Shown: positions 2,523 to 48,613 of the stretch, one piece after another
Position numbering within the stretch: position 1 is the stretch's first letter
How the letters are laid out: each line of letters starts with the position of its first letter
IMG/VR virus record: IMGVR_UViG_3300032163_000003
Location: 1 to 64,000 of that record
Length of the DNA: 64,000 nt
Reading direction: 5' to 3' (one strand)
Origin: a virus
The notes under the pieces: model-generated
What the model was told of the DNA's origin: nothing
The model's database searches: none
The model's input: only the letters and a program-made list of their open reading frames with translations
Translations under genes and position numbers: made by a program

Positions 2523-3010
2523 TCAATGATGACTAATTGTTAAATGAGGAAACTCATCAAACGTTCCTCCATGTTCCATCTCTGACCAGAATCTCCCATC
2601 TTCATCTGAATATAAAAAGATGTAAGCCGCCTTTTCTTTATTTTCTTCAATAAACTTAATAGCTATCTTTTCAGCTATTTCTCTATTCTTTGCTTTGTAC
2701 ATATCGCTAGCTTTCATGCGAGCATCGAAGTATTCTTTCTCAGTCAGATAATCTCCTTTCTTAAGATTTTTTATATCTTCCCAATCAGAGATAAATCCAT
2801 CGAAATACCCAGATTAAGTTTGTCAACACATTCTTTAGATAGTTCTAGCTTTATAGCAGTCTGTTTCTGAATATCATCAAAGACCACTTGTGCTTTTTCA
2901 ATAAACAATATATTGTCTTTGATATCATGTAAGAAGACCACTGGTCTATCGAACGCTACTATAAAGCTAGAACTGCTTGAGTTAGTTACAAAATCCTGCT
3001 TGCTTTTCAC
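2523..3010 (-). pseudogene. Frameshifted 'DFVTNSSSSSF' family protein
   Basis: N-terminus MKSKQDFVTNSSSSSFIV (2771-3010); after ~2815 another frame reads SGYFDGFISDWED...YSDEDG...MEHGGTF...ISHH and runs into ORF 2523-2717. Confidence 0.6.
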
Positions 3011-3695: not shown

Positions 3696-3995
3696 CTATC
3701 TTGATATTTGTTTTTCCACTGTATAAAATTCAGCGGCAATTGATAGGAGAGTTCTATCATTGTCTGTTTTTATTGTAACCCCGTGAGTCCGCCGCCGAAC
3801 AAGAGTTCCTTCATAAACCTTTTCTCCAGCAGGTGATTGAACTTTGACAACTATTTTATCATCATAGTATTGATTTGAAGAATTTTCTTTTGAAGTCTGA
3901 GTTTGCACTTCCTTGGGATTATCCAAACACCCAGTAAAGACAAAAGACAACATAAGAAAGATACTAATCACTACCCACGTCATAAGTTTCAACAT
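3696..3995 (-). CDS. Putative lipoprotein
   Basis: Signal peptide with FTGC lipobox; paralogous C-terminus to 3007-3402. Confidence 0.5.
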   Translation of the reverse strand: MLKLMTWVVISIFLMLSFVFTGCLDNPKEVQTQTSKENSSNQYYDDKIVVKVQSPAGEKVYEGTLVRRRTHGVTIKTDNDRTLLSIAAEFYTVEKQISR

Positions 3996-7799: not shown

Positions 7800-8786
7800 T
7801 TAAAGACCAAGCGGACAACAAGCTGGATCTTTTGTAAGAACTTCTCTAAACTTTTTGAATGACTCTCCATTTTTCCAGACTTCTTTGATTGAGTCATTTC
7901 TAATTGAAATTCCGTACTGGTCATGATTCCCAAAAGAACACGGAATTAATTTCATATCTGAACTTACATACACACTAGCTCGGGCCGCCTCGCAAGTGTC
8001 TACGTATTGTTCCTGTTCTTTGGGGAACATATTTAGTTTCTTAATTTTATTAACAAGACAGCTGTCAAGCCCAATTTTAAACGAAGTCTTTCCAGAAGTC
8101 ATCAACGCAGCGAGTTTCTTAATCTGATACTCAGTTGGAACTTCATTTTCTAAACTTTTTCCTCTTCCTTGCGGTTTAAAAAGAAGAAAAATAACTGCGT
8201 TTAGTTTGTTTAGATCTACTTTCCCCCCCCAAACATCTTCGCCCTCAAGAACATCTACTGCTCTAAGTAATCGGCTAGTAGATAATACAAAGTGAATATT
8301 TGTTTTGATTTTTGCCTCTTGAAATTTTCTAATAGCTTCATATGTAAAGTTCTGACTATAATCACTAACTGCAACTGCTCCAGCCTGTTTAGAAATCTCA
8401 ATAGCCTCATCAGTCAACCCATTTCCACTAGTTGTATAATTAGGAATGATATTTTTCGACCTTGTATATTCGATAATCTCTTTAAAGTTTTCATGGAGGT
8501 TTGGATCTCCTTTCCCACCAAGAGCAACTTGCATTACCAATGGAAATACTGCATCAATAATCTTTTTGTAATCTTCTAGTTTCATGTTCGCACCTTTGTT
8601 CTCTCCCTGATAACAAAAAGAACAAGAGTTCAAACAATTTCCCATGATTCCAATGTCCATTAAAGATGGAAAATCTAGAATAAAAGGATCAGGGTTTCCA
8701 TTAATTCCAGACGTAACTTCCATCCCAGTTTTGGGATTAAAAATAATCGCATACTTATCTGTTCTCACTACTTTTAGCATATCCAT
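7800..8786 (-). CDS. Radical SAM protein with SPASM/twitch domain
   Basis: CLNSCSFCY (CxxxCxxC), GGKGDP, YTTSG, C-terminal CEAAR...PCSF...CCP. Confidence 0.9.
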   Translation of the reverse strand: MDMLKVVRTDKYAIIFNPKTGMEVTSGINGNPDPFILDFPSLMDIGIMGNCLNSCSFCYQGENKGANMKLEDYKKIIDAVFPLVMQVALGGKGDPNLHENFKEIIEYTRSKNIIPNYTTSGNGLTDEAIEISKQAGAVAVSDYSQNFTYEAIRKFQEAKIKTNIHFVLSTSRLLRAVDVLEGEDVWGGKVDLNKLNAVIFLLFKPQGRGKSLENEVPTEYQIKKLAALMTSGKTSFKIGLDSCLVNKIKKLNMFPKEQEQYVDTCEAARASVYVSSDMKLIPCSFGNHDQYGISIRNDSIKEVWKNGESFKKFREVLTKDPACCPLGL

Positions 8787-19582: not shown

Positions 19583-20326
19583 ATGAAATTATGTGAATGT
19601 GGGTGTGGTCAAGAAGTAAAAAAAGAAAAAAATAGATTTATTAGTGGGCATAATCGAAAAGGAACAAAACAATCTAATTTTCAAAAACAAAGAGTTTCAG
19701 AGTCTAACAAAGGAAAGAAAAAAGAAAAGGCAGTCAAAGTCAGTAATAAAAAGTTGCTTTGTAACTATGGGTGTGGACAAGAAGTCAAATTCCAATTTAA
19801 GAATGAAAAATATTGCTGTAATGACAATGTTTCAAAATGTTTGAATATTTCAGAAAGAATTAGAAAAAAAATTAAAGGAAGAAAACAAAGCAAAGAAAGT
19901 ATAGAAAAAAGGTCAAACAAAGGGAAAAAGATTCATAGTAAAAAACATAAAGAAGAATTAAGTCTTTGGATGAAAGAAAATTATAGTTATATACACAAAT
20001 TTATTAAAAAAGTTTCTTCTGGAGAACTCAAACTTAGAGAAATAGTTAAAATTTTATATCCAGCATCAGAACACACACATAGAATTCTTAATTATGATAT
20101 AGATATTACTATTCCTGAATGTAAAATTGCTATCGAATATGATGGGTGGTATCATTTTGATACAGAAGGACATAAAGAATATCATAAGAAGAGACAACAA
20201 GAAATCGAAGAAGAAGAAGGATGGAAGTTCTTAAGATATAATATTTTTCAGAAGTTTCCAACAAAAGAACAAGTTAACGAAGATATTTTAAAATTGCTTG
20301 GAGATAAAAATCATGAAAGCTTTTAG
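19583..20326 (+). mobile_element. Free-standing endonuclease (CxCGCG zinc modules + NUMOD3 + DUF559/Vsr-like domain)
   Basis: MKLCECGCG, FISGHN, YDID...IAIEYDGWYH...GWKFLR. Confidence 0.75.
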
Positions 20327-20585
20327 TTTCTACCAACTACTAGAAAAACTAGATAAAGAATTAGAACAGATAAACCTCCAACCTTATAAAGCTGGTATGT
20401 TTACACCAGCAGAAGATGAAGAAGATGAAAATATGGAAGAGATGGCTGCTCCAGGTTGGGAAGGTTCAGTTAAGAAAATGAAAAAACACAAAGATATTAC
20501 AAATCCTTGGGCGTTGTCCTGGTTTATGAAGAAACAAGGTGCTCATCCACATTATACAAAAAGTGGCAAAAAGAAAGACGAATAA
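20313..20585 (+). CDS. FSFY-leader family protein
   Basis: MKAFSFYQLLEKLD; GGAG RBS; payload APGWEGSVKKMKKH...NPWALSW. Confidence 0.65.
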   Translation: MKAFSFYQLLEKLDKELEQINLQPYKAGMFTPAEDEEDENMEEMAAPGWEGSVKKMKKHKDITNPWALSWFMKKQGAHPHYTKSGKKKDE

Positions 20586-29842: not shown

Positions 29843-30550
29843 TTACTTCTCTTTCTCGATTTTTGTGAATGTACCAAATCTTTTAACTGTATCAGCGAAT
29901 CCATACTTTACAGCTTCATCTGCATCAAGCCACAATTCTTTCTTTTTAATCTTTTCGTTTAACTCTTGTTTAGTAATTTTACTATGCATTATAATGTAAT
30001 CGTTAACTTTATCTTGGATCTTTCTCATGATCTTAGCTTCTTCTTCCTTATCTGCTGGTGTTTCAATAGCAAAGAACTTAAACTGCCAAAACTCATGAAA
30101 CATGATCATTGACCATTCATCAAGGTATCTATAACCCGGATTCCCTGAAATTAAAATCAATAAACCAGCACTCGCAATTAAACCACGTCCTCGAATTTCT
30201 ATAATCTTACCTGTAGACTGTTGTTCTTTGAAAATAGAGATAATACCCATAGCATCAAATAGACTTCCACCAGAGGTAAGTAAATCTATAACTACAACCT
30301 TATAGCTAATACTCTTTAAAGAAAGAAAAACATCTCTTATATTATTAAAGTCTATGTATCGAATAGACATGTAAATAGTATCTCCATATTTAGATACACC
30401 TTCTGGAAGTATATTATCTGCTGTAAGTTTACCCTTAGCATCTGCACTATATCCTTCTCTTATAGAAAATCCAAAGACAAGGCAACTAATTAAGACTAGT
30501 ATAACTACTATTAAATTTAAACGTTTCATTGTTTGTTCCTTTTTCCTCAA
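29843..30550 (-). CDS. ClpP-like serine protease with N-terminal signal/TM segment
   Basis: TSGGSLFDAMGI, GLIASAG, MIMFH, WLDADEAVKYGFAD. Confidence 0.8.
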   Translation of the reverse strand: MRKKEQTMKRLNLIVVILVLISCLVFGFSIREGYSADAKGKLTADNILPEGVSKYGDTIYMSIRYIDFNNIRDVFLSLKSISYKVVVIDLLTSGGSLFDAMGIISIFKEQQSTGKIIEIRGRGLIASAGLLILISGNPGYRYLDEWSMIMFHEFWQFKFFAIETPADKEEEAKIMRKIQDKVNDYIIMHSKITKQELNEKIKKKELWLDADEAVKYGFADTVKRFGTFTKIEKEK

Positions 30551-31024: not shown

Positions 31025-33199
31025 TTAAATGTATTTGTTTTCTATAGTGGCTAGACTATTTTCATGAGCAACTTTTATTCCATTTAACCCACGATTATAA
31101 GTATTAATGGTGGCTTCATATTGTTCTTTAGTCATACCACCTGAATTGTATAGATTAGTAGTCTTCTGAATACCAGTATTAAGTACTTGAACACCACTTG
31201 TATATTTTTGATTCTCTCCTGCTATTGCTGAGCTTCTTGCTTGCATTTTTTCTTGACTTGCTGCTACTGTTGGTTCTACTTGTGCTTTCACAGTCTCCTC
31301 TGCTGTAGTTGGGAATGTGTCTGCTTTCTTAACTTCTTCTACTGTTGGTTTGGGTGTTATTGTTGTTTTAATACTTTGTCCTAAATCCTTAACTGTACCA
31401 GTAGCTTTTGTTATACTTTCAGATAATTGTTTAGCTTTAGAACTTGCTCCATCTATTACTGACGTTGCTATCTTAGTTCCTGCTGCATAGACTGCTGTTC
31501 CTGTTGCAGTTAACTTACTTGATACTCCACCCCAGAACGAATCTGATTGTCCAGGAGCTTTACCTCCTTCAGGTAATTCTTTAGGTACATTCTTAGAGTC
31601 TCCTGGTACAGCGCCATATTCATCTTGTATATATGCACTATCTTCTGGGACTGCTGCCATAGCCTCTGCTGCGTCTATCATCTGATCTCTACTTGCTCCT
31701 GGAGTCAGTCCTGCTACTTGAGTTGCTTGTGTTTCTGGTCTCACTCCTTCATAGTACTGTGCTGCTTCTAGTTGATCTTGTAACTTTTTATCTTGTAGAG
31801 CTTTCTGTTCTGCGTTCTGTCCCGCATAGTCTTCCATTTCTTGTGTCTGTTTAGCTTGATCTAACTTAGATGCTTCTAGTTCCTTATCTCTTCCTGCTAC
31901 AATTCTAGCTTCTCTATCTACTTCACCCGGAGCGGTAGCAGCATCTGCTTCTTTCTTTTTAAGATATGCAGCATCTGCTTCATCATCTGACATTACTCTT
32001 GGAGACGGATTCTGGTACGCAGTAGGATCAACAGTACTGGTTGGTGTTCCTGGTGCTGTAACAATATCTTCGTCTGAAGGTATTCCTCTAGATGTTGAAG
32101 TTACATTTGGTGCTCCTGGTTGGGGGCCATACATTTTTGGCGCTACAGTTCTTTCTCCCAACTGGTCTATATAGTCTCCAACTGATGGAACACTGGTAGA
32201 GGTCCTCCGTCCCAACATAACAGAATGCAGCGGTTGGAACTCTAATCTGACATCAATCATGCTAGGTCTATTATTCCATGACATTTGGTTTTCGGGACCA
32301 GGTTGTACTGTGATCCCTATGCATGATGCCATCTTCCACTTAAACAGTCCGGGACTCCAAATTTGATGAATATAAGGCCAACGATATAGATTATCTTGGT
32401 CAGATAGTGGTGCTCCAAGCATTAAAAGTACAGTTAATGGTTCAATGATGTACTTATTGTAACATACATCACTAGCCTGATTTGGGTTATATAACCTTAC
32501 CGGAATTGAGACCGGACCAGAGAATCCACTACCCATCCACACTTTAGGGAAATCAACTCTAGCACCAGTTAACATTTGACCTACTACACTTAACCCAGTA
32601 CTGACCATGTTTCTTACACCTTGTTGTGTATTAGTTGGTAATTTATCTATTGCTTTTTCACCAAGACCTGCTATTCCTTTTATCAAATCGCCAATTTTTC
32701 CGCTTGCCCATTCTCCTGCTCCTTTTCCCCTTTGTCCGGCAACCGCTCCCCCCAACTGTCCTGGGAGTTTTTGTGCTAAGCTTCCAAGACTAGTAGAACC
32801 TGACATTTGGGCTAACTGTCCAAGTAGAGGTCCTCCAACTGATGTAATACTCTCTAAGAAACTAGCACCATAATCATTAGATAACTGAATGCCTGGAATA
32901 GCTTCAGGAAGGAATGCAATAGGAATAGCATTAGAGTCTGTTTTTAACAAAATATCATAATCATTCATTAACATATCTTGAAATTCACCTAGTTTATCAT
33001 CAAAATGAAAAACATCTAAACCAGCAACAAATTGTCCTTGACCAGGTATAAGATACATAAGGGGAATGGATCCCTTTAAAACTTCATTAGAGAAATACAG
33101 TTCAACAGGAGGAAACCCAATTGGTAATCTAGTTGCTGTACTCTCTCCGGAAGATAGTGGATATCCCGGGGTTTTTGCTGCTTTAGCTGGATCTGCCAT
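31025..33199 (-). CDS. Baseplate/tail-tube-initiator-like protein with long low-complexity C-terminus
   Basis: FPKVWMGS...RLYNP...RPSMIDVRLEF tube-like pattern; Ala/Thr/Gln-rich tail. Confidence 0.5.
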   Translation of the reverse strand: MADPAKAAKTPGYPLSSGESTATRLPIGFPPVELYFSNEVLKGSIPLMYLIPGQGQFVAGLDVFHFDDKLGEFQDMLMNDYDILLKTDSNAIPIAFLPEAIPGIQLSNDYGASFLESITSVGGPLLGQLAQMSGSTSLGSLAQKLPGQLGGAVAGQRGKGAGEWASGKIGDLIKGIAGLGEKAIDKLPTNTQQGVRNMVSTGLSVVGQMLTGARVDFPKVWMGSGFSGPVSIPVRLYNPNQASDVCYNKYIIEPLTVLLMLGAPLSDQDNLYRWPYIHQIWSPGLFKWKMASCIGITVQPGPENQMSWNNRPSMIDVRLEFQPLHSVMLGRRTSTSVPSVGDYIDQLGERTVAPKMYGPQPGAPNVTSTSRGIPSDEDIVTAPGTPTSTVDPTAYQNPSPRVMSDDEADAAYLKKKEADAATAPGEVDREARIVAGRDKELEASKLDQAKQTQEMEDYAGQNAEQKALQDKKLQDQLEAAQYYEGVRPETQATQVAGLTPGASRDQMIDAAEAMAAVPEDSAYIQDEYGAVPGDSKNVPKELPEGGKAPGQSDSFWGGVSSKLTATGTAVYAAGTKIATSVIDGASSKAKQLSESITKATGTVKDLGQSIKTTITPKPTVEEVKKADTFPTTAEETVKAQVEPTVAASQEKMQARSSAIAGENQKYTSGVQVLNTGIQKTTNLYNSGGMTKEQYEATINTYNRGLNGIKVAHENSLATIENKYI

Positions 33200-33472
33200 T
33201 TATGTCTCCTTACTTAAAATTGCTCTAAAGTGAATTTTGTTTGTTTAAGCCTTAAAATCACTATGAATGGATTTGTGTTTGAACCCCAGTTCCGTGGACT
33301 TTGAAAATACACGATTGTGCGTGTATCCGGTTATGTGACCGGTCATGTGAAGGTACTAGTAGCACCGTTGTCCTGACAGTCTGACAAAACTGTCCTTTTG
33401 GTACGGTGGTGGTGTTTTTTACTTCGCCATCCCCGATCGTCCGATACCGAGATTTTTTACAAAAAAAATTTT

Positions 33473-33729
33473 TCAGTTTGAAACTGTTTCTTTTAACTTC
33501 GTTATTTCATCTCTAGCAGTAGATATCTCGTCATCCCAATGTCTCCGACAACTTTTTAAATCTGAATACTCATGCCCCCATTCTTTACCTTGTTTTACAA
33601 GTCTTGGACAATTCTTCTTTGCAATCTCACATTTCTTTATAAACCCTGTAAACGCTGAATCCGTTCTTTAGGGTCAGACTTGAAAAAGCCTTCTGTAAGT
33701 CCCTCTACTAGTCTATAAAATGAGAACAT
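33473..33729 (-). CDS. FSFY-leader family protein with -1 frameshift
   Basis: MFSFYRLVEGLTE...QGL* (30 aa); G GGT TTA heptamer at 33646-33640; -1 frame continues IKKCEIAKKNC...C...SN*. Confidence 0.55.
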
Positions 33730-33732
33730 ATC

Positions 33733-34233
33733 TTATTCCTCTGTCTTAGCTGCTTTCTGGACCTTTTGTCTTTGTAATGCAAGGACTCTAATTGTTCTAA
33801 AAAAATTCTTCTTTGTTACTGGATCTTTAATTTCTGTTCCTGATTTTGCTAATCGTTTTATTGATGGACGTAAACTGGGATCTAGATAAAATTCGTCTAA
33901 TTGATCTGTTCTTTTTAATCCTTCTACTTTAGCTGCTTGCTGCGCAGCTGCTTTATTCTTTTGTGCTACCTCTCTAGAAGCTCTATATACTCCTGATAAA
34001 AAAGACGAAGCTCGTTTGCCACTAAGGGGGGTTGATCCTTTGAATACTTCTTTAACTCTCCCTGGATCTCGCATTCTAGCTCTAGCTTCCCATGACCTCT
34101 TTGTTTCTTTTTTGGCTTTTCTTAATGGAAAAAATACACTGGGTTTAAGTTTAGTCATTGTACTTATACCTTTTTCCCATTTGTATTCATTTAACTGATC
34201 TAACGTTTCTACTAGTCTATAGAATGAAAACAT
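33733..34233 (-). CDS. FSFY-leader family protein
   Basis: MFSFYRLVETLDQLNE; basic payload. Confidence 0.7.
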   Translation of the reverse strand: MFSFYRLVETLDQLNEYKWEKGISTMTKLKPSVFFPLRKAKKETKRSWEARARMRDPGRVKEVFKGSTPLSGKRASSFLSGVYRASREVAQKNKAAAQQAAKVEGLKRTDQLDEFYLDPSLRPSIKRLAKSGTEIKDPVTKKNFFRTIRVLALQRQKVQKAAKTEE

Positions 34234-34235
34234 GA

Positions 34236-34451
34236 TTATGTCTCCTTACTTGATTTCATATGTGAATAATCTTTTAAGTATCTTGGATCTTTCCACATGC
34301 AAGTATCACAAACTATTATCTCACCAGAATTTGCATAGTTACCCCAGGGTTCACCAGTTGGCCCAACTGCATAAAATCCGGCCGTGGCTGTTTCGGTTCT
34401 AATTCCATCTATCATTTTTCCACATCGGTCGCACTTGACGGTTACTTTCAT
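34236..34451 (-). CDS. Small zinc-finger protein
   Basis: CDRC...CDTC. Confidence 0.55.
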   Translation of the reverse strand: MKVTVKCDRCGKMIDGIRTETATAGFYAVGPTGEPWGNYANSGEIIVCDTCMWKDPRYLKDYSHMKSSKET

Positions 34452-34693
34452 TAGAGTCTATTCCTTCTTCTATCATTACATATTATACCAGTTGAACTAA
34501 CATTAATATCTATATTAATAACTTTACCAAATAATCTTTCTAACCAGTCTAACTTTCCGTTTCCACCACATACATGACATAAATAGGGAATTTTTAATTC
34601 CCCGGTAAATTCGGTTCCTATCCCTTCACACTTTGGACATATGATGTCGGTCTTTTGGAGGTCTTCTTTTTGAACTCCAAGTTTACCGTTCAT
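34451..34693 (-). CDS. DnaJ-like zinc finger/DW family protein
   Basis: CPKCEGIG...CHVCGGNGKLDWLERLFG. Confidence 0.6.
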   Translation of the reverse strand: MNGKLGVQKEDLQKTDIICPKCEGIGTEFTGELKIPYLCHVCGGNGKLDWLERLFGKVINIDINVSSTGIICNDRRRNRL

Positions 34694-34914
34694 TCTTCTA
34701 CTGGTCCTGCTAAATTCTTTTCTGCAGGTTCAGGTTCTGGCTCTTTAGTCTTTACTAGAGATAGTATTTTCTTCTTCCCTGGATTTTCTGGAGGATTGAT
34801 AGCTCCCGCTGCTGAAACTCCACTACTTGTTGGAAGTCCAGCAACTCCTGCGTCCCCTCCTGCGTCTTCATATAGTTTACCTAACGCTTCTACTAGTCTA
34901 TAAAATGAAAACAT
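34690..34914 (-). CDS. FSFY-leader family protein
   Basis: MFSFYRLVEALGKLYED; Gly/Ala/Pro payload. Confidence 0.7.
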   Translation of the reverse strand: MFSFYRLVEALGKLYEDAGGDAGVAGLPTSSGVSAAGAINPPENPGKKKILSLVKTKEPEPEPAEKNLAGPVEE

Positions 34915-34942
34915 ATCTTAATCTCCAATTGTTTTGTCTATG

Positions 34943-35335
34943 TTAAAATTTTAGAAGTGGGCCAGTCTTTATCTGTATGTCTGGTACTATGTTAACTAAA
35001 GTAGCAACTAAATATCTTGTGCTCTTGGTTCGTTCAGAGTTTTCCATCAGAATGGTACCTTCTAGTATTTTAAATTCGGATCCTTTGAAACTAAGAAGTC
35101 CCATGCTAAAACTTGTAACGTCATTTTTGTTTTCGTCTGTTAGCGTTACGACAAGATTTCCCTTTATGGGAATGTCAGTTTCATTCTGTATAGTTACTTT
35201 CCATTCTAATATACATCCGTCAGAACTACATGCAGCAGATAGTACTGCTGGAGTTATACTTACTTGACCATGTACTGCTGGAGCTATGAGTAATAGACTT
35301 AAGACTATTAACAATACTGCTAAGAATTTTTTCAT
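34943..35335 (-). CDS. Secreted/membrane Ig-like beta protein
   Basis: Signal peptide MKKFLAVLLIVLSLLLIAPAVHG. Confidence 0.55.
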   Translation of the reverse strand: MKKFLAVLLIVLSLLLIAPAVHGQVSITPAVLSAACSSDGCILEWKVTIQNETDIPIKGNLVVTLTDENKNDVTSFSMGLLSFKGSEFKILEGTILMENSERTKSTRYLVATLVNIVPDIQIKTGPLLKF

Positions 35336-35346
35336 TTATATCTCCT

Positions 35347-35568
35347 CTATACTTCTGCTTCGTCTTTCTTCTCTACATAGCAAGGACAATTATGTTGCCT
35401 ATTTTTCTCGTTATTAAAATAGACACATCTACCAGCTTCTGAGACTCCTGCTTGTTTACACCCCGGAATACATAAGTTATCTTTCTTTTTCCATTTGGAA
35501 CAGACCTTACCATTTCCACAATAATCTTCTTGTTCTAATACTTCAAGTAATTTATAGAATGAAAACAT
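35347..35568 (-). CDS. FSFY-leader family protein, Cys-rich payload
   Basis: MFSFYKLLEVLEQED + seven Cys. Confidence 0.7.
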   Translation of the reverse strand: MFSFYKLLEVLEQEDYCGNGKVCSKWKKKDNLCIPGCKQAGVSEAGRCVYFNNEKNRQHNCPCYVEKKDEAEV

Positions 35569-35794
35569 GAGATTTAATCTCCTTTATTTATCACACTCTT
35601 TGCAATCTAACTCACTAGCGCCGATACCTGTAGTTCTGAATTCTTCTATGTGTCCACACTCAAGAGTTGTTTCTACTATGTGATATATTGTATGATGAAC
35701 TTCATTGCTTAGATAACCCGAACATCCCTGTGGGTCTGTCCATGTTCTATCTGTATGTTTATAAGATATAACTTTTCTAATCATTATTTTATTT

Positions 35795-36064
35795 CTATTC
35801 CTCTTCTGCTGGTTCCGCTTGCATTTTAAATCTTGACATTGCGGAAGATACTTTTTGTTTAGCATGTTGCGCTGCTTTGAAAGCGTTTACATATAATTGT
35901 TTATCTAGAGGAACTTTTGATTTCATATATGCTTTTCTACGTACTATCGCTGTTGCTATCTTATCTTTCCATGAAGAAAGAGATGGATTGTTTGAGCTTA
36001 AATTTCGATTCCATACCGCTTCTAGTAATTCTAGTTCTTCTATTAATTGGTAGAAACTAAACAT
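35795..36064 (-). CDS. FSFY-leader family protein
   Basis: MFSFYQLIEELELLEA. Confidence 0.7.
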   Translation of the reverse strand: MFSFYQLIEELELLEAVWNRNLSSNNPSLSSWKDKIATAIVRRKAYMKSKVPLDKQLYVNAFKAAQHAKQKVSSAMSRFKMQAEPAEEE

Positions 36065-36357
36065 TACTTTCTATCTCCTTACATGCCCTACATTTAAGTC
36101 CTGGAATTACGCACCTTTTGAAAGTAATTCCTAAAATGAAGTCTAGTAAACAATATGTTATACCTAGATAGATTAGAATTTCCATTTTCTTAGATCTCCT
36201 ATGTGAACGTGAACCTACGGTGCTTGCGATCCTGCTTTAAAGATAATACACTTACCTACAATCTAGTCCACACCCACATGAACCAGCCCGAGTGAAAATC
36301 CTTAAAAGGATTTTCTTTATCCACACTTTTAGTTTAACAAAAAATACTTTCATATTT

Positions 36358-36897
36358 TTATTTCCGTATCTTTGAACCTTTATATTTTTCCGACGTTAAC
36401 TCTCTATATCTTTCTCTTAGTTCTAGAATTTTTTCCTCTGATGTGTCTACACAGTTCTGTCTGAGGAAAGCGCGTTCTTTACTAATTTTTGTATAACAAT
36501 TCTGAATTCGTTTTCTTAGAAGTCCTATTTGTACTTCTATTGCTTGCAACTTTAGTTTCTTTCTACATTCAAATCCTTCTACTCCTGTTTTAGAAAAACA
36601 TGTTTCTTTTTCTTTAGCTTCGAAATGAGCAGCTACCGCTCCTATAATAGCAGCAATTGTTATAATTCCTAACACTCCTAATGTACTTACTTTTTGTTTT
36701 TTCTTTCCTTCTAAAACATATGGAATAAAAGTTTCTTCAACTTCTTCGGGGTTTTCCGATTGTAGAATCATAGGTTCCTTATCTTTAGACTGTAGTATCG
36801 GTGCATTCGGAGCTATCTTAACTATTTTTGGATCTCTAACTTGTGGAGCTTCAGTTCTATCTAACTCAATAAGTTTTATAATTCTACTTATTCTCAT
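36358..36897 (-). CDS. Hypothetical protein, hydrophobic helix + four Cys
   Basis: C-terminus parallels 15889-16425. Confidence 0.55.
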   Translation of the reverse strand: MRISRIIKLIELDRTEAPQVRDPKIVKIAPNAPILQSKDKEPMILQSENPEEVEETFIPYVLEGKKKQKVSTLGVLGIITIAAIIGAVAAHFEAKEKETCFSKTGVEGFECRKKLKLQAIEVQIGLLRKRIQNCYTKISKERAFLRQNCVDTSEEKILELRERYRELTSEKYKGSKIRK

Positions 36898-36898
36898 T

Positions 36899-37336
36899 CT
36901 ACTGTCCTCCGACAACACTTACTTGTGACTTTTCTTTAACTTTTCTTGGGCTGCTCCACGGGGAAGTATTGATTATACCTTTTAGCTTATCTGACGCTAA
37001 AGTCTTTCCCGAGGAGTTTGGGGTTTTATCTCCCATATTGAATGAGTTTACGTTCTGAACTTCAGACACCTTCTTTTTCTTTGTTGCTTTATACGAATGC
37101 TGCATTATTGTAGCTTTTCGATTAAAACAATCGACCACGCATTTTTCCCACTCTTTTCTATCCAAGATACGAGAACACTCTGATTTACAAAACATCATCG
37201 CGTCACGTTCTTTCCCTTTTTTTATGAGATGACGTAATCCTAAAACACCAGCGATAGCTGCAATAGTTGGAGTAGCAAATAGTTCCTGCAGTTCTTGTTC
37301 TTCCAAATATTCTATTAATTGATAGAATGAAAACAT
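36899..37336 (-). CDS. FSFY-leader family protein
   Basis: Internal ATG at 37336: MFSFYQLIEYLEEQELQELFA; CKSEC...CVVDC. Confidence 0.7.
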   Translation of the reverse strand: MFSFYQLIEYLEEQELQELFATPTIAAIAGVLGLRHLIKKGKERDAMMFCKSECSRILDRKEWEKCVVDCFNRKATIMQHSYKATKKKKVSEVQNVNSFNMGDKTPNSSGKTLASDKLKGIINTSPWSSPRKVKEKSQVSVVGGQ

Positions 37337-37340
37337 GAAG

Positions 37341-37823
37341 TTATTCCTTATGTTGTTTCCAGGATTTAATTCCTGGTCCACCCAAGTTCTTAGTTGGTGC
37401 TCTGAATTTACCAGACCATTTATTCTTAATCCAATTATAACCTCTTGCTGCAATATTCGCGGCGTTTAACTTTTCATCCAACGACTGGAGATATTCGTCT
37501 AGTTGTGTAGTTTTTAGGAATTCTTGTTTATTTGTTTTTGAACTTTCTTCTACATTTTCTTCGTCTTTATCTTCTCTCTCGTAAGGCCTGAATGGATATC
37601 TTACCGCATTAACTGCGCCTTTTGCCACACCCTTAACTGCTCTGTATGCTCCGTATAATCCACCCGCTGCTAAGCCAGCAGTTCCTAAAGCACCAAGTCC
37701 TGCCACTTTTGCAGTTTTTTTAGCCGCGCTTTTTATTGCGGGAGCTGGTGGAACATATATTCCTTCCTCTTTCAGTAATAAGTCAAGGTCTCCTAAGAAC
37801 TGATAAAAGCTAAATCGTTTCAT
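37341..37823 (-). CDS. FSFY-leader family protein
   Basis: MKRFSFYQFLGDLD; AGGAGG RBS; Gly/Ala hydrophobic helix. Confidence 0.7.
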   Translation of the reverse strand: MKRFSFYQFLGDLDLLLKEEGIYVPPAPAIKSAAKKTAKVAGLGALGTAGLAAGGLYGAYRAVKGVAKGAVNAVRYPFRPYEREDKDEENVEESSKTNKQEFLKTTQLDEYLQSLDEKLNAANIAARGYNWIKNKWSGKFRAPTKNLGGPGIKSWKQHKE

Positions 37824-38458
37824 ATATTTCCTCCTAGAATAACTTTTTGAATATCTCTTTTTACTTGATCTTTAGTTGGAAACTTATCGAACATTGTATA
37901 TCTTATAAATTTCCACCCATCTTCTTCAATTTCTTTTTGTCTTTTCTTGTGGTGTTCTTTGTGTTTCTCTGTATCAAAATGATACCAACCGTCAAATTCT
38001 ATAACTATTTTATGTTTAGACAAAGCGTTGTCAACTTCATAATCTTTATTTTCTAAAACTTTGTATGTATGTTCTGAAATTGGAAATAATTCTTTTACAA
38101 TTCCTCTAAGTTTAAGTTCTTGTTTTGATGGATTTTTGATTTGTTTTCTAGCTTTTCTAAGATTTTCTTTAACTTTCTCATTTCCTTTCATTTTTACTGA
38201 AACTTTTTCTGCTGCTCTTCTTCGCCCTTCATCATTCTCTTTAGTTCTACCGGTTATTTTTTCCGCTGCTCTTTCTCGAACCTTTTCAGTTTGAAAACTA
38301 AGAGCGTGAACTGCTCCTCCGTTTCTCATGTATTCTGCTTGTCTTTTAACGCTTTCATCATTCTCTTTTGTTTTTCCTCTTCTATTATGTCCAAGTATAA
38401 ATTTATTTCCTTCTTTAGTCACTTCTAATTCACATACTCCACAAGCACATAATTTCAT
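37820..38458 (-). mobile_element. Free-standing endonuclease, close paralogue of 19583-20326
   Basis: MKLCACGVC, FILGHN, IEFDGWYHFDTEKHKEHHKKRQKEIEEDGWKFIR. Confidence 0.75.
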
Positions 38459-38474
38459 TGATAATCTTCCTTCT

Positions 38475-38837
38475 TCATTCATAATTTGATTTAACCCTCC
38501 CAGTTCCTGAAACTGATTTAGACTGGTTCTCCCAGTTAGATCTGTTCATTCTAAATGTTTTAAAGTCACCAAACTTTTTATTTAACTTAACTATTTCTTT
38601 AGTCTTTCCTGAAAATCTTGGAGATTGTTCTTTACCTATTGTCGAAGGAAGTGGACGAATAGGACTTGCAGATTCACTTTCAACTGCGTCTCCAGTTTGT
38701 AATCTATTTGATCTTTCTGAATCAACATTTGACATAAACTTATTTAGTTTTAATTGCGCGCCAACTTTCTTCTTTCCGCTTAGATAGACCTCGTATTCAT
38801 CAAGTCTAGTAATTCTTAAGAACTGTTCCTTTGTCAT
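38475..38837 (-). CDS. Hypothetical protein
   Basis: Class B motif directly upstream of MTKEQF; RLDEY motif. Confidence 0.5.
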   Translation of the reverse strand: MTKEQFLRITRLDEYEVYLSGKKKVGAQLKLNKFMSNVDSERSNRLQTGDAVESESASPIRPLPSTIGKEQSPRFSGKTKEIVKLNKKFGDFKTFRMNRSNWENQSKSVSGTGRVKSNYE

Positions 38838-38871
38838 ATATAATTTGTTCCGTTTTGTGACAAGATCTGAT

Positions 38872-41800
38872 TTAAATATTACCACTTAAAATTGCAGCGA
38901 TTTCAGGATCAAAAGATCCTTGTCCGCTTTGTCTTCCACCCCCACCGCCCTGTTGATTGCTTTGCATATTTGTGATTACGTTAGAGTTAGAAATTATCGC
39001 TGCGTTTACTCCTTTGAGACCTTTATCTATAGCTCCAACCATTGGGTTCATTGCTTTACTCATTCCATTGATTCCCATCATAGCATTTTCTACTTCTCCA
39101 TCAATCAAGTCTTTTCTTTTGTAAGGAACATTGAATTGTTTAGGATCTCCAACTTGTGGTTTCATTTGCAAATGCCATGGCTCATTTCCCATTGGCTGAT
39201 AAAATCCATACTTCTCCATCAGACCTTCTTTTTTCAAACCATAAGCATCTCCACTATTAATGTCTAACGCCAATCCTTTTCCGTGAGGAGATTTTCCTGG
39301 AGGAGCAGCGTATGGGTTAGTTTTGTACAACTCAGCTTGTTTTGCTGGAGACCTGTAGGCGGAGTTTAATTGAATCTCTTTTCCTGTTCCTTTCTTATAT
39401 TCTTCTGCCATCAAAGAGAAGTTTTTCCAAATTGGTTCTTGAACTCCACTTATATCAACATCAGGCATTTTCTTGATTCCAACTAAAGATCCAAGTCGTT
39501 CCCCAATCGTAGTAGCTCCAGAAACTATAGATTTTCCTATATCTGTTATTCCTACTTTTTCAGCTACTCTTTGAGCAAATCCAGTAGCTCCAGTTGCTGC
39601 TTGACCAATAGCCCCAGCGGCTTTTCCTAGTAAACTTTCTTTTTGATATTCTAGTTGGATTATTTTTCCTACGTCTGCGAAACCCTCTTTAATCGCTTCT
39701 CGAATAGTAATAGCTAAGTGAGATTCACTGCTTGCTGATTTACCAACACCATCCCCTACTTCTTTTATTTGACCATACTTTCTTGGTCCATATCCCGGAT
39801 CTCCAACTCCTCCCATTTGCATATATTTTTCATATTCCGCTTGCCCAGCACCAGGAGTAGTTTCTGGAGCTTTTTCCGGTCCACCTGTAACTTTCTCAAC
39901 AGCCCATCCAATCGCTTTTACAAGAGGATTCTTTTTAACTAAATCAACTATCCAATCTTTTGCTTTAACTGCTAAGTCCCACATAAAGTCAACTGGATAT
40001 AGAACCAAATCTTTTATCGCTATAGCCTTTTCTTTAACATAACCAACTACAGAATCTATAGATTTCGAAATTGTTTTACTAGCAGATTCAACTATATCAA
40101 AAACTAAGTCTCCGAGCCATCCAGGTCCTTTATATTTTCCTCCTGAAATCCACTCACCAAACATTCCAAATAATTCACCAACAAGAGTTTTTTCCCCTCG
40201 AAAAGCTTGTATCATTTCATAAACACCAAACGCAGCTGCTCCTACTGCAGCTCCCATTGGTAACATTCTTAATAAAGCACCACCCGCTTTACCCAGTCCT
40301 TTTAGCCCCAACCCACCAAGGGCTTTTAAGTATCTTAGAGGATTTAACTTTGTCATAAGACTCTTTACCCAACCACCGATTGCTCCAACAGTCATCAGCA
40401 AGTAGTCAGATATACTTTTAGTTCCTTTTTTAAGTATGTCTATAATTTTAGCTGTATCCTCTTTAATTGTTGCTACTATCTTTGAGGTAGGTTTTGCGAT
40501 ACCTATTATTTGTTTAGTTTGGTCTTTTGAAAGCTTTCCAAAATATCTTGAAATAAATCTAGCTGCTTTTCCTGATATTTCGGAAATAATTATCTTAGTT
40601 TCTAACTCCTTTTTTTCTCCTTCTTTGACTCCCATTCCAGCTTTTGCTGCTGCAAAAGGAATCTTGTAGTCTTTATAAGTCTTATCTTCTTTTACTTTAC
40701 CATGTTTTCCACCAAACAAAATTCTTTTTATGTTTTTTGGTCTTAAAGCTCCTAATCCTCCAACACCTCCAGCTTCCACTTCTCCAGCTCCAACCCCAGC
40801 GAAACCTAACATTGTTTCCCACGCTTTTTGAACTATGTCAGAAAAGAATCCACCACCCATTCCACCAACGGTAACTTTCTCTCTCTTCTTTTTAGCAGCT
40901 TTTTGACTAGGCGATTCCCAACCACCTTCTTCTGGAGCACCACCAAAACCAAGCATTCTTTTTATCTTATCAAACATTCCTTCTTCTTTTTTACCTGCCG
41001 GTTTCCACCAACGCTTGACTCCTCTAGCTCCAAGTCTTATTTTTTGAATTCCGGTTGCTTCCATCTTTTCTCTTGGTTCTCTAAATCGTTCCTGTTTTAT
41101 ATCAAGACCCATTCCAATAGCTTTTAGAGAAGAAAGTATGTGATCATATTTATGCATGAAGTCAGCATAAATCATTCCCAATGTAGTAGCAATATTTCCT
41201 AGAACGTTTGGACCTTTTGGAACTTTAGCTTTGTATTTGCTTTGAGTAGAGAATAACCACTTTAAAGGTTTAGCCATCCAATCGCTAATTTTTATAAATG
41301 TTTTGAACATAGGGATTTCTTTAAACATATCCCGTATCATGCCATATATTCCCCCCGGTTCTCCTTCCACATTCGGTTCAGAAATCGTTGTTAATTGTTC
41401 TCGAATTGCTCCTAACTCAGTCGTTACTGGTTTAATTGACCGTTTAAACATTAGGTTAAATTCTCTAAACAATTTTTGAGAAGGAACTACAACTTCTGCT
41501 GCATGCACTTGAGCTAGTCCTGTCTTTGCTACATATCCGCCTTTCTGTAGTTTTGGAATTCTTGTGTTTTCTCTAGCAGATTGACCAGCTCTAAACATTG
41601 ACTTAAACTTAGATCCAACCACACTAGCGGCGTCACTAAGTTTATTTTTAATTGCGTCACTAAATTTTCTGAAAACACCAGTTTCCATGAATTTAGCGGC
41701 GAAGTATCCAAATATAGGAGTAGCTCGACTCAGCGCCATTGCGACGGTATTTGGCGCGCTGATATTTAATTCTCTTTGTAAAATGTTTTTATAATTTTGG

Positions 41801-42132
41801 AGTGTTTCTTTTGTGATGGAAGATATCTTGACAACGCCTCTTCCCATTATGTCAAACACGTATCCAACTCTATTTAAGATACCAGAAACCGACTTTTCTA
41901 TTTCTCTAATTCCTTCAGTTCCAGCCATTCTTTCTACTTTAAGTCTTCTAGCTTTTTCTGTAATTCTTCTAATATCATTTCTAGCTCCGCCAAGTTCTTT
42001 TTGAAAGTCATCGTTATTTCTTTCTATAAAATTCGAAACAGCATTGATCCCTTTAGCTCGTTGGTTTCCTTCTGCCGTTGCTTCTCTTTCATTCTGACTC
42101 ATCATTCGTCTAATGTCTCGGTCATTAGCCAT
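38872..42132 (-). CDS. Tape-measure-like tail protein with C-terminal M15 (VanY-like) peptidoglycan peptidase
   Basis: Long helical Gly/Ala-rich body; NSAYRS...SPHGKGLALDI...EPWH. Confidence 0.8.
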   Translation of the reverse strand: MANDRDIRRMMSQNEREATAEGNQRAKGINAVSNFIERNNDDFQKELGGARNDIRRITEKARRLKVERMAGTEGIREIEKSVSGILNRVGYVFDIMGRGVVKISSITKETLQNYKNILQRELNISAPNTVAMALSRATPIFGYFAAKFMETGVFRKFSDAIKNKLSDAASVVGSKFKSMFRAGQSARENTRIPKLQKGGYVAKTGLAQVHAAEVVVPSQKLFREFNLMFKRSIKPVTTELGAIREQLTTISEPNVEGEPGGIYGMIRDMFKEIPMFKTFIKISDWMAKPLKWLFSTQSKYKAKVPKGPNVLGNIATTLGMIYADFMHKYDHILSSLKAIGMGLDIKQERFREPREKMEATGIQKIRLGARGVKRWWKPAGKKEEGMFDKIKRMLGFGGAPEEGGWESPSQKAAKKKREKVTVGGMGGGFFSDIVQKAWETMLGFAGVGAGEVEAGGVGGLGALRPKNIKRILFGGKHGKVKEDKTYKDYKIPFAAAKAGMGVKEGEKKELETKIIISEISGKAARFISRYFGKLSKDQTKQIIGIAKPTSKIVATIKEDTAKIIDILKKGTKSISDYLLMTVGAIGGWVKSLMTKLNPLRYLKALGGLGLKGLGKAGGALLRMLPMGAAVGAAAFGVYEMIQAFRGEKTLVGELFGMFGEWISGGKYKGPGWLGDLVFDIVESASKTISKSIDSVVGYVKEKAIAIKDLVLYPVDFMWDLAVKAKDWIVDLVKKNPLVKAIGWAVEKVTGGPEKAPETTPGAGQAEYEKYMQMGGVGDPGYGPRKYGQIKEVGDGVGKSASSESHLAITIREAIKEGFADVGKIIQLEYQKESLLGKAAGAIGQAATGATGFAQRVAEKVGITDIGKSIVSGATTIGERLGSLVGIKKMPDVDISGVQEPIWKNFSLMAEEYKKGTGKEIQLNSAYRSPAKQAELYKTNPYAAPPGKSPHGKGLALDINSGDAYGLKKEGLMEKYGFYQPMGNEPWHLQMKPQVGDPKQFNVPYKRKDLIDGEVENAMMGINGMSKAMNPMVGAIDKGLKGVNAAIISNSNVITNMQSNQQGGGGGRQSGQGSFDPEIAAILSGNI

Positions 42133-43915: not shown

Positions 43916-45646
43916 TTATCCTTTTTCTATTCCGATAAACTTTCCTAGTTCTTCCTCTTCCTCTTCGTCCTTTGGGAGCAGATCTATGGCTTTTCTAGAT
44001 TCGATCTTGTATCCAGGAGCTGCTCTGCTTAGTTGAGTTGTGCCATCATAGAAAGAAAGAGTATTTAAAAACCCTTGGTTTGCAGATATGTTATCTTTTA
44101 CGAACTGCATAATGTCTTCATTAGTTAGATTAGATCTTTGGTTGTCGTTCATTTTCATTACATCATTAAACATTGTGTCAGATAAGAACTTACTAGATTC
44201 TACCCCCATTGGTGGGTCATACTTGCGGACGTAAAATGCGCAAGCAGTTGCGAGAGACAAGTCATCTCTACAACCTACATCTCCTTCAACTTTTCCAGCT
44301 TTAGTAATTAATCCAATTAGTTCTAATGAAAGTCTTTTTGATTTAACTAATTCTGGGAATTCAGTAATATAGGAATATAACGAATCTATAATTAAAGGTC
44401 TAGTTTTAGAGTTATTCGATAGTCCGGCAACTACTTTATTATCACCTTTTTTCTCTTTGTACAGCATGTTTGATAAATCGGATCTATCAATCTCTTCACA
44501 TACTTGGTTTCCATATCCTCCAGTATTTTCAACAACTAGAAGACCAGGATATTTAGTACAAGCTAACCTAACTACTTTACTAAACTCGGTAACAGCAAGT
44601 TTTCCTTCGTACTCCCAAACTTGTTCTAAAGTTACATAGTCCCAAACTGTAATTGCAGAATTGTCTACGCCGTGTTCTGCAGCGGTATCCACTCCAATCA
44701 AATAGTATCTTCCCTTCTCGGGCTTCTTAAACATCCACGATTCCCCACCAAATATCCTTACAATTTCTATTGGTTCAGATTTATCTCTTTGTAACTTCTC
44801 GCAAGTAATTTCATCAAAGAACGATCCTTTTGTAGGTAAAAAGATTAAATCTAGTTCTTGCTTGATCGACCTTTGGTCATTTGCAAACATTTCACATTGT
44901 GTTTTATACCAAGTAGGATCTCCCGCAAGTTCTGGAATTTGTTTCCAGTGAATTTCCATATATTTAAAAATATCATCACCGCTCATTGATCGTTGATATC
45001 TTTTATAAAACCACGCACCTAAACCAGTAGTTTTATTAGGAGTTGATAATATTAAAGTTCCATATGGAACATTTGCTTCTCTTGCGTGCTTTTGATTAGT
45101 TGATAAAGCTGGAACCATTCCAACCCATGCATCTTCAATGTGTGGAATGAACGCTGCTTCGTCAATTACTAAGAATGTTATTGCTTTACCACGGAGAGTT
45201 CTTTCTGGGTGGTTTGGGTTTACTGGAGTAGCATAACATTTGCACCCGTTGTCAAGAATAAATTGTTGTTCTGTTCTTTTCTTGAACTTTGGAGACAACC
45301 AAATAGGAAGTTTATCTATCATTGACATTATCGCTCTAGCAAAGTCAGTAGCTTCTTTTCCATCTTTGGAGATAATTCCGATAACTGCGTTCTTAAAGAA
45401 ACAAACCAACCATCCAATATATGCTTGAACTACTGTAGAAATTCCAATTTGTCTAGATTTTAGAACTAACATGTTATGAATGGTGTGAATTAAGTTAATT
45501 AATTCAGCCTGTTTCTGATAAGGTTTTATCAGACGATCTCCCCCAACTAGTTCAAGTTTGATATACTTTCTGCAAAAATACTCGAATGAACTCTTACACT
45601 TAAAGTATTCTTGGAGCCTATACTGCCTTTCTTTTTCGTCAGTCAT
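43916..45646 (-). CDS. terL: Terminase large subunit
   Basis: YQKQ, KSRQIGIST Walker A, LVIDEAAF Walker B, STPN, IGVDTA...DNSA...DDL nuclease. Confidence 0.92.
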   Translation of the reverse strand: MTDEKERQYRLQEYFKCKSSFEYFCRKYIKLELVGGDRLIKPYQKQAELINLIHTIHNMLVLKSRQIGISTVVQAYIGWLVCFFKNAVIGIISKDGKEATDFARAIMSMIDKLPIWLSPKFKKRTEQQFILDNGCKCYATPVNPNHPERTLRGKAITFLVIDEAAFIPHIEDAWVGMVPALSTNQKHAREANVPYGTLILSTPNKTTGLGAWFYKRYQRSMSGDDIFKYMEIHWKQIPELAGDPTWYKTQCEMFANDQRSIKQELDLIFLPTKGSFFDEITCEKLQRDKSEPIEIVRIFGGESWMFKKPEKGRYYLIGVDTAAEHGVDNSAITVWDYVTLEQVWEYEGKLAVTEFSKVVRLACTKYPGLLVVENTGGYGNQVCEEIDRSDLSNMLYKEKKGDNKVVAGLSNNSKTRPLIIDSLYSYITEFPELVKSKRLSLELIGLITKAGKVEGDVGCRDDLSLATACAFYVRKYDPPMGVESSKFLSDTMFNDVMKMNDNQRSNLTNEDIMQFVKDNISANQGFLNTLSFYDGTTQLSRAAPGYKIESRKAIDLLPKDEEEEEELGKFIGIEKG

Positions 45647-48571: not shown

Positions 48572-48613
48572 AACGTTCCCTCCATTATAATTTGTTCCCA
48601 AAAATGTACAAGA

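Follow-up and report, generated by a model that had tools for sequence, protein, structure and literature searches.

The address-tag principle of phage T4 has been known for decades. The array of genes analysed here bears comparison with it: eight genes share one N-terminal leader, termed FSFY after the residues near its start, and carry unrelated payloads behind it, all within the window, a 64,000-nucleotide stretch of viral DNA (IMG/VR record IMGVR_UViG_3300032163_000003, positions 1 to 64,000). In T4 the first 10 residues of the internal protein IPIII suffice for incorporation into the head (PMC9026906; PMC3012670); within this 10-residue capsid targeting sequence (CTS), residues 4 and 7 serve targeting and residues 8 and 10 processing (PMC9026906), and Asp at position 10 stops cutting but not targeting (PMC9026906; PMC3012670). 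The protease gp21 cuts after L/I-x-E (PMC9026906), and T4-related phages carry differing basic proteins with CTS-like starts (PMC9026906; PMC3012670). In phiKZ, 201phi2-1 and SPN3US, head and ejection proteins bear propeptides that gp21-like proteases remove by cutting after (S/A/G)-x-E or A-x-E; these propeptides are thought to target their proteins to the prohead, many head-internal proteins are trimmed after Glu, and an SPN3US ejection protein has a membrane helix immediately after its propeptide (PMC5694885).

Set beside these systems, the FSFY leader is best read as a capsid- or virion-targeting peptide that would be trimmed by a protease, a reading to which the combined analysis gives about an even chance. 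It is ranked first because of its T4-like grammar, the exchangeable and mostly basic payloads, and the T4-type packaging enzyme encoded in the same window.

The FSFY genes and their leader

Each of the eight open reading frames (ORFs) opens with M(Kx)-F-S-F-Y-[RKQ]-[LIF]-[VLI]-[E/G]-x-L and continues into an acidic stretch. The starts lie at 20313 on the plus strand and, for the seven genes that make up the cluster, at 33729, 34233, 34914, 35568, 36064, 37336 and 37823 on the minus strand; individual genes are referred to by F and the start position.

33473..33729, minus strand: FSFY ORF of 30 amino acids (33729-33637), 85 amino acids if read on; ends on a slippery heptamer
33733..34233, minus strand: FSFY gene, 166 amino acids; strongly basic payload (+23)
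34690..34914, minus strand: FSFY gene, 74 amino acids; Gly/Pro-rich acidic payload; orthologues with additional C-terminal modules
35347..35568, minus strand: FSFY gene, 73 amino acids; seven-Cys payload; orthologues P0004, P0009, P0010, L116 and L057
35795..36064, minus strand: FSFY gene, 89 amino acids; basic payload; missing from the relative L116
36899..37336, minus strand: FSFY gene, 145 amino acids, ATG at 37336; leader, invariant ELQELF, membrane-type helix, twin CxxxC helical hairpin and disordered basic tail
37341..37823, minus strand: FSFY gene, 160 amino acids, MKR-FSFY variant; Gly/Ala-rich hydrophobic helix, acidic patch and internal T-x-LDEY
20313..20585, plus strand: FSFY gene, 90 amino acids, MKA-FSFY variant; in the baseplate operon, immediately following a homing endonuclease

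The first-pass annotation of this DNA, made from the letters alone, had listed the same eight starts, and all were confirmed: a 20-position leader profile run over the six frames of the full 110,069-bp record marked exactly these eight places (E 2e-11 to 2.5e-8), the further FSFY words in the record falling in every case in short or non-start frames. Its observation that five of the genes share a DNA start also held, the 15-nucleotide word ATGTTYTCATTYTAT occurring five times against 0.14 expected, a count reached by none of 100 shuffled sequences. That the ORFs are real genes follows from the Shine-Dalgarno sequence that each possesses, from their tight packing against their neighbours, and from the 75-90% identity of orthologues in metagenomes. 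As the same annotation had stated, the FSFY genes alternate with unrelated small genes, namely two zinc-finger ORFs, a signal-peptide protein, a 93-residue Cys protein, a 42-residue membrane ORF and a 186-residue membrane/Cys protein.

Selection on the leader acts at the level of the protein. The codon for its invariant Ser is TCA in five of the genes, AGT in two others and AGC in the eighth; synonymous codons likewise specify Phe, Tyr and Leu11, and the 60 nucleotides upstream of the starts have nothing in common except the ribosome-binding site. Between orthologues the leader residues remain unchanged although three or four of their 16 codons carry synonymous differences. Conservation confined to the DNA, the regulatory-element case that the first-pass annotation had held against its own proposal, is thus not the pattern found.

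An alignment of 28 distinct leaders, drawn from the phage and its metagenomic relatives, established the sequence rules of the tag. S3, F4 and Y5 never vary and F2 is missing from a single leader; position 7 is L or I in 25 leaders and position 8 is V, L or I in every one, after which E occupies position 9 in 26, L11 is retained in 26 and D or E follows at position 12 in 24. Residues 7-9 therefore fit the T4 prohead-protease rule L/I-x-E, and a second site of this type is often found near residues 14-16. The acidic leader, whose net charge lies between 0 and -4 and in which there is no hydrophobic core, is not a Sec or Tat signal. AlphaFold2 placed a helix at residues 4-19 and 4-17 in two family members, in each case at low confidence.

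The 30-residue ORF ends ...CAG GGT TTA TAA, a canonical -1 heptamer, G_GGT_TTA (33646-33640), abutting the stop. The -1 frame is open for 55 further codons to ~33473, has no start of its own and would yield a Cys-containing product of 85 residues; the heptamer could mark a programmed frameshift, a 1-nucleotide indel or an assembly error.

Two of the FSFY genes, both of the MKx-FSFY variant, lie behind paralogous endonucleases:

37820..38482, minus strand: homing endonuclease whose stop overlaps the MKR-FSFY start; paralogue of the endonuclease at 19583-20326 on the plus strand
19583..20326, plus strand: homing endonuclease preceding the MKA-FSFY gene

The two share 72% DNA identity across the nuclease domain and each ends on the start codon of its MKx-FSFY gene; joint mobility of endonuclease and cargo gene is possible.

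A second N-terminal tag family, M-K-x-K-x-DFVTNSSS, was observed on three minus-strand genes, one in the window (~2770-3010) and two further along the genome (65073 and 65456). With two different tag families in one genome, the phage offers a good opportunity to study how short terminal peptides direct protein sorting in phages.

Payloads and their exchange among relatives

Beyond residue ~16-18 the payloads proved to be unrelated, as the first-pass annotation had claimed: no pairwise BLASTP similarity was significant, the best match (E 0.026) being confined to a 10-residue acidic patch, and no family in Pfam, PHROGs or NCBIfam accounted for any FSFY protein; no enzyme could be recognised among the payloads. 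With the tag removed, six of the eight are basic (net +4 to +23), one is neutral and one acidic; two contain hydrophobic helices, and the seven Cys of the payload encoded at 35347..35568 are conserved among its orthologues. AlphaFold2 models of two families returned predicted local distance difference test (pLDDT) values of 52.8 and 47.7, the twin CxxxC helical hairpin of F37336 being the only part above 70, and the protein Atlas gave scores of 0.84 or less, its models being likewise of low confidence; no payload thus has a confident fold, and such models are compatible with disorder. The module comprising a Gly/Ala-rich membrane helix and twin CxxxC hairpin recurs both with and without FSFY, at 36899-37336 and 36358-36918 on the minus strand and in the metagenomic protein P0021.

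A second motif, [FL]-L-[KR]-x-T-x-LDE-[FY], has only three copies in the 110-kb record, all on the minus strand and all in or beside the cluster: at 33903, where the extra C-terminal module of F34233 begins T-D-Q-LDEF; at 37505, inside F37823; and at 38807, at the N-terminus of a small gene:

38475..38885, minus strand: small LDEY gene, likely start ATG 38837; N-terminal F-L-R-I-T-R-LDEY

The F34233 module is not present in the orthologues P0002, P0015 and P0016, and in the metagenomic protein P0023 a module begins with T-K-LDEF. Since the motif is always found at the start or border of a module or at the N-terminus of a gene, it marks module borders; it again contains L-x-E, and may be a second cleavage or docking site.

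The relatives found for the phage are all short contigs from metagenomes. When 1.84 billion representative proteins were searched by profile, the only matches were the phage's own proteins and three orthologues, and word seeding against 5.8 billion proteins brought in a further ten of 88-274 residues, all in the same payload families; orthologues of four of these families, from other metagenomes, are 75-90% identical. The leader DNA pattern matched at least 119 stretches in the Joint Genome Institute (JGI) metagenomes, with true leader genes at six loci (L024, L036, L057, L065, L094 and L116); the remaining matches, more than 100, were rejected as chance. Scans of IMG/VR with two leader DNA patterns, with the 724-residue protein encoded directly downstream of the cluster and with P0002 produced chance matches only, inside other genes or antisense, and both matches of the leader pattern in GTDB genomes were likewise due to chance. 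Run on Flavobacterium phage immuto, Microcystis phage Mel-JY01 and the 595-kb LR756511, the leader profile gave no genuine match, and none was obtained when the JGI metagenomes were scanned with the F34233 family or when the cluster region was compared by megablast with 50,697 phage records. A terminase scan identified one 9-kb relative, which ends short of the cluster. Judged by these searches, the FSFY leader is confined to one narrow lineage.

Within that lineage the payloads behave as exchangeable cassettes: the leader is kept while modules are swapped, extended or lost. Gene order is preserved at L057 (seven-Cys, signal-peptide, Gly/Pro, zinc-finger). L116 is without F36064 and the gene for the 93-residue protein, and its seven-Cys gene has an added C-terminal module that reappears in a different ORF of L094. 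At L094 the leader stands at the same site, beside an orthologue of the gene for the 724-residue protein, with a different payload, and similarity after the swapped payload resumes only at a conserved non-coding block. In P0021 a payload of the F34233 type is joined to a membrane helix plus twin CxxxC module, and in P0023 one of the F34914 type to a further C-terminal module. A conserved leader with lineage-specific payloads is what the first-pass annotation had expected a leader profile to reveal in the genome and its relatives.

At L065, L024 and L036 the leader was observed joined to a new Cys payload, on contigs of 42% G+C that are otherwise dissimilar to the phage. Immediately upstream lies a small ORF ending SFYKLVEELE, possibly a decayed copy of the leader; L024 also encodes a single-domain response regulator.

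Genomic setting of the cluster

The record from which the window is taken has 34.6% G+C, and its CheckV completeness of ~35% indicates that it is a piece of a much larger phage. The features that bear on the function of the leader are as follows:

43916..45646, minus strand: T4-type large terminase (Terminase_6N match)
38872..42132, minus strand: 1086-residue virion protein with a C-terminal VanY-type cell-wall peptidase, upstream of the FSFY cluster
31025..33199, minus strand: 724-residue virion structural protein, directly downstream of the FSFY cluster
29843..30550, minus strand: ClpP-like serine protease with an N-terminal hydrophobic anchor, ~3 kb beyond the cluster
38839..38850, minus strand: promoter-like motif GAACAWAWTAWA, at the head of the transcription unit holding the FSFY cluster
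12047 (plus strand), 30602 (minus strand) and 48586 (minus strand): other copies of GAACAWAWTAWA, respectively before the baseplate operon, before the ClpP-like gene and near 48586

The minus-strand order runs from the terminase through a 295-residue ORF, a homing endonuclease, the 1086-residue VanY protein, the LDEY gene and a further homing endonuclease to the FSFY cluster, and thence to the 724-residue protein, the ClpP-like protease, two small ORFs and a fibre-like protein. The best cultured relatives of the terminase, those of Flavobacterium phage immuto, Microcystis phage Mel-JY01 and T4-like cyanophages, are ~30% identical, as is one in a 595-kb uncultured phage. With its tape-measure-like stretches, the VanY-bearing protein looks like a tape-measure or ejection protein, and residues 190-330 of the 724-residue protein form a domain resembling jumbo-phage proteins of the virion, among them those of Yersinia phage phiR1-37 and of phages of the phiKZ type. 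The ClpP-like protease has a hydrophobic anchor or signal at residues ~11-29, unusual for a prohead protease, and is an atypical candidate for the head-maturation protease. The plus-strand baseplate operon comprises hub, gp25-like and gp6-like wedge genes, and the window also encodes a 1057-residue protein resembling a tail fibre or spike and several free-standing homing endonucleases.

The motif GAACAWAWTAWA occurs in four exact copies against 0.32 expected, located ahead of virion or packaging units. Because it heads the baseplate, ClpP-like and FSFY units, all eight FSFY genes belong to units that also encode virion proteins, and these units are probably expressed late. A scan for sigma-70 promoters gave no enrichment. 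The copy at 38839 stops one nucleotide ahead of ATG 38837 and would make the transcript nearly leaderless.

Between the FSFY cluster and the gene for the 724-residue protein lies a non-coding block of ~130-150 nucleotides (33347-33494; L094:1443-1589) whose conservation relative to L094 exceeds that of the genes on either side. Searches of the 440-nucleotide gap below the cluster gave no tRNA and no Rfam family, and a hairpin within the block (33375-33394) is not conserved.

Elsewhere in the window, a 761-residue RtcB-type RNA ligase (3964-6249, minus strand) matches its family in two stretches, separated by an HNH endonuclease domain inserted at residues ~173-261, which looks like an intein or other inserted element.

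Competing readings and known systems

From the features described above we infer virion loading, cleavage at L-x-E, ejection and a role for the payloads. The tag would be a short helix presenting the aromatics F2, F4 and Y5, followed by one or two [L/I/V]-x-E sites (7-9 and ~14-16), and would dock unrelated small proteins onto the assembling virion, most likely onto the prohead's scaffold core. Cutting after Glu, a head-maturation protease would subsequently remove the tag, and the remaining small proteins, mostly basic and partly membrane-active, would stay in the particle to be delivered along with the DNA.

The targeting tag proposed by the first-pass annotation has accordingly fared in mixed fashion. 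A tag conserved at the protein level, cassette behaviour, position in virion operons and a T4-like grammar speak for it, and a number of results weigh on the other side. L-x-E is a weak motif of low information that arises easily in acidic helices; one leader has D and another G at position 9, and only about half of the leader helices are clearly amphipathic. Of the virion proteins that can be recognised in the fragment, none was marked by the leader profile as bearing the tag, and the large genes flanking the cluster may belong to the tail rather than the head. No gp21-type protease (Peptidase_S77), gp23 or gp20 was found in the ~35% complete 110-kb record, and no homologue of gp22 in the available fragment. 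The nearby ClpP-like protease is membrane-anchored at its N-terminus and reaches 57.5 bits on the NCBIfam model of ClpP-related head-maturation proteases, for which the cut-off is 120, and the searches made found no cultured relative.

Several of these points lend themselves to a different account, ranked second and possible if on balance doubtful, in which the leader is a docking or sorting tag for another process that acts in the cell late in infection, the candidate partners being a phage or host chaperone, the membrane-anchored ClpP-like protease, a membrane-insertion route or some other hub protein. The membrane anchor of the nearby protease, the DnaJ-type zinc-finger genes interleaved with the cluster, the membrane or exported proteins represented by two payloads and several neighbouring genes, and the lack of head genes in the fragment would all be at home here. 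However, an acidic tag with no hydrophobic core is no Sec or Tat signal, most payloads are soluble, basic and apparently disordered, and neither the virion-operon position nor the combination of aromatics with L-x-E is explained. It is unlikely that the genes are instead one old paralogous family which has kept an N-terminal helix, for example an oligomerisation element, while its disordered tails diverged, with no sorting involved. The genes are clustered and small, several payloads are of low complexity, and F20313 and F37823, both behind paralogous endonucleases, share a weak acidic patch; yet the payloads differ in kind (seven-Cys; membrane helix with twin CxxxC; Gly/Pro-rich; strongly basic), and the full-length alignment expected of ordinary paralogues, which the first-pass annotation had set against its own proposal, was not obtained between any members, nor any significant payload-payload BLASTP match. 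Moreover, orthologues 75-90% identical inside each payload family indicate that the payloads are not drifting freely, and modules are visibly exchanged between genes.

The leader/core-peptide alternative that had accompanied the original proposal has lost ground, and it is now very unlikely that the genes encode precursors akin to those of ribosomally synthesised and post-translationally modified peptides (RiPPs), with FSFY recognised by a modifying enzyme and the payloads modified and released as cores. The window does contain a radical-SAM/SPASM gene (7800-8786, minus strand), three payloads are Cys-rich, and an acidic leader is generally RiPP-leader-like. That gene, however, is 25 kb from the cluster, and the mere 46 residues ahead of its radical-SAM core leave no room for a recognition domain; the payloads run to 57-150 residues, five of the eight have no Cys and the 30-residue ORF acquires Cys only through a -1 frameshift, and the same phage carries three genes with the different tag DFVTNSSS. 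Least probable of all is that a nucleic-acid element was conserved, whether a translation-initiation signal, a repressor site or a homing-endonuclease target, and that the peptide is its by-product. The 15-nucleotide word common to five genes and the abutment of two FSFY genes on paralogous homing endonucleases had suggested such an element, a candidate since largely refuted by the codon pattern: Ser is encoded from both the TCN and the AGY family, and synonymous codons occur at every invariant residue. On the upstream side conservation stops at the ATG, and the DNA similarity of the endonucleases ends before the FSFY start; together with the synonymous changes between orthologues, the codon pattern and the unconserved upstream DNA remove a DNA or RNA element from consideration.

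Capsid targeting by FSFY can be extended, in a rather speculative and improbable form, to a two-motif code for loading the head, in which FSFY would address the protein to the prohead and T-x-LDE[FY] would mark the fusion of a second module, such that mosaic mini-polyproteins would be loaded whole and cut into partly membrane-active, Cys-stapled ejection peptides. Were this so, the phage would possess an evolvable plug-in system for injected cargo that might be transplanted for loading foreign proteins into large phage heads. If the tag itself loads the capsid, it would constitute an independent second case of the T4 address-and-trim principle, achieved with a different sequence, and would suggest that the principle is general among large T4-related phages rather than a peculiarity of the T-even group. 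It would also point to fast-changing injected proteins, likely to be first-minute anti-defence weapons or membrane-active helpers of DNA entry, and would yield a short tag with which foreign proteins could be packaged.

Within the literature collection searched, no paper was found that describes such leader arrays in metagenomic phages, and the nearest parallels are the systems with which this account opened. Like the T4 CTS (IPI, IPII, IPIII and Alt, with gp21 as the protease), FSFY is a short N-terminal peptide on unrelated, mostly small and basic proteins; in both, aromatics precede an L/I-x-E inside the first 9-11 residues and the set of tagged genes differs between related phages, and the terminase here is of the T4 type. 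Unlike the T4 case, the likeness is one of grammar only, with no sequence similarity and no T4-type protein returned by the profile search of 1.84 billion proteins; the FSFY tag is longer, with a second acidic turn and L11 (listed as invariant; 26 of 28 leaders), its payloads include membrane helices and Cys hairpins, and homologues of gp21, gp22, gp23 and gp20 were not found in the available fragment. RiPP precursors resemble the FSFY proteins in combining one conserved N-terminal leader with hypervariable C-terminal parts, but those systems differ in that no maturase or recognition domain is adjacent here and the payloads are long and mostly without modifiable Cys. The giant phages share with this one their large size, and the membrane helix behind the propeptide in SPN3US resembles the FSFY membrane payload; their propeptides, however, are mostly longer than 100 residues and have no single shared sequence, whereas the FSFY tag has 16 residues and is near-identical on all members. 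New relative to all of these are the FSFY tag, the second motif at module junctions, payloads that carry membrane helices and Cys hairpins, and the coexistence of the tag with another, unrelated tag family in one phage.

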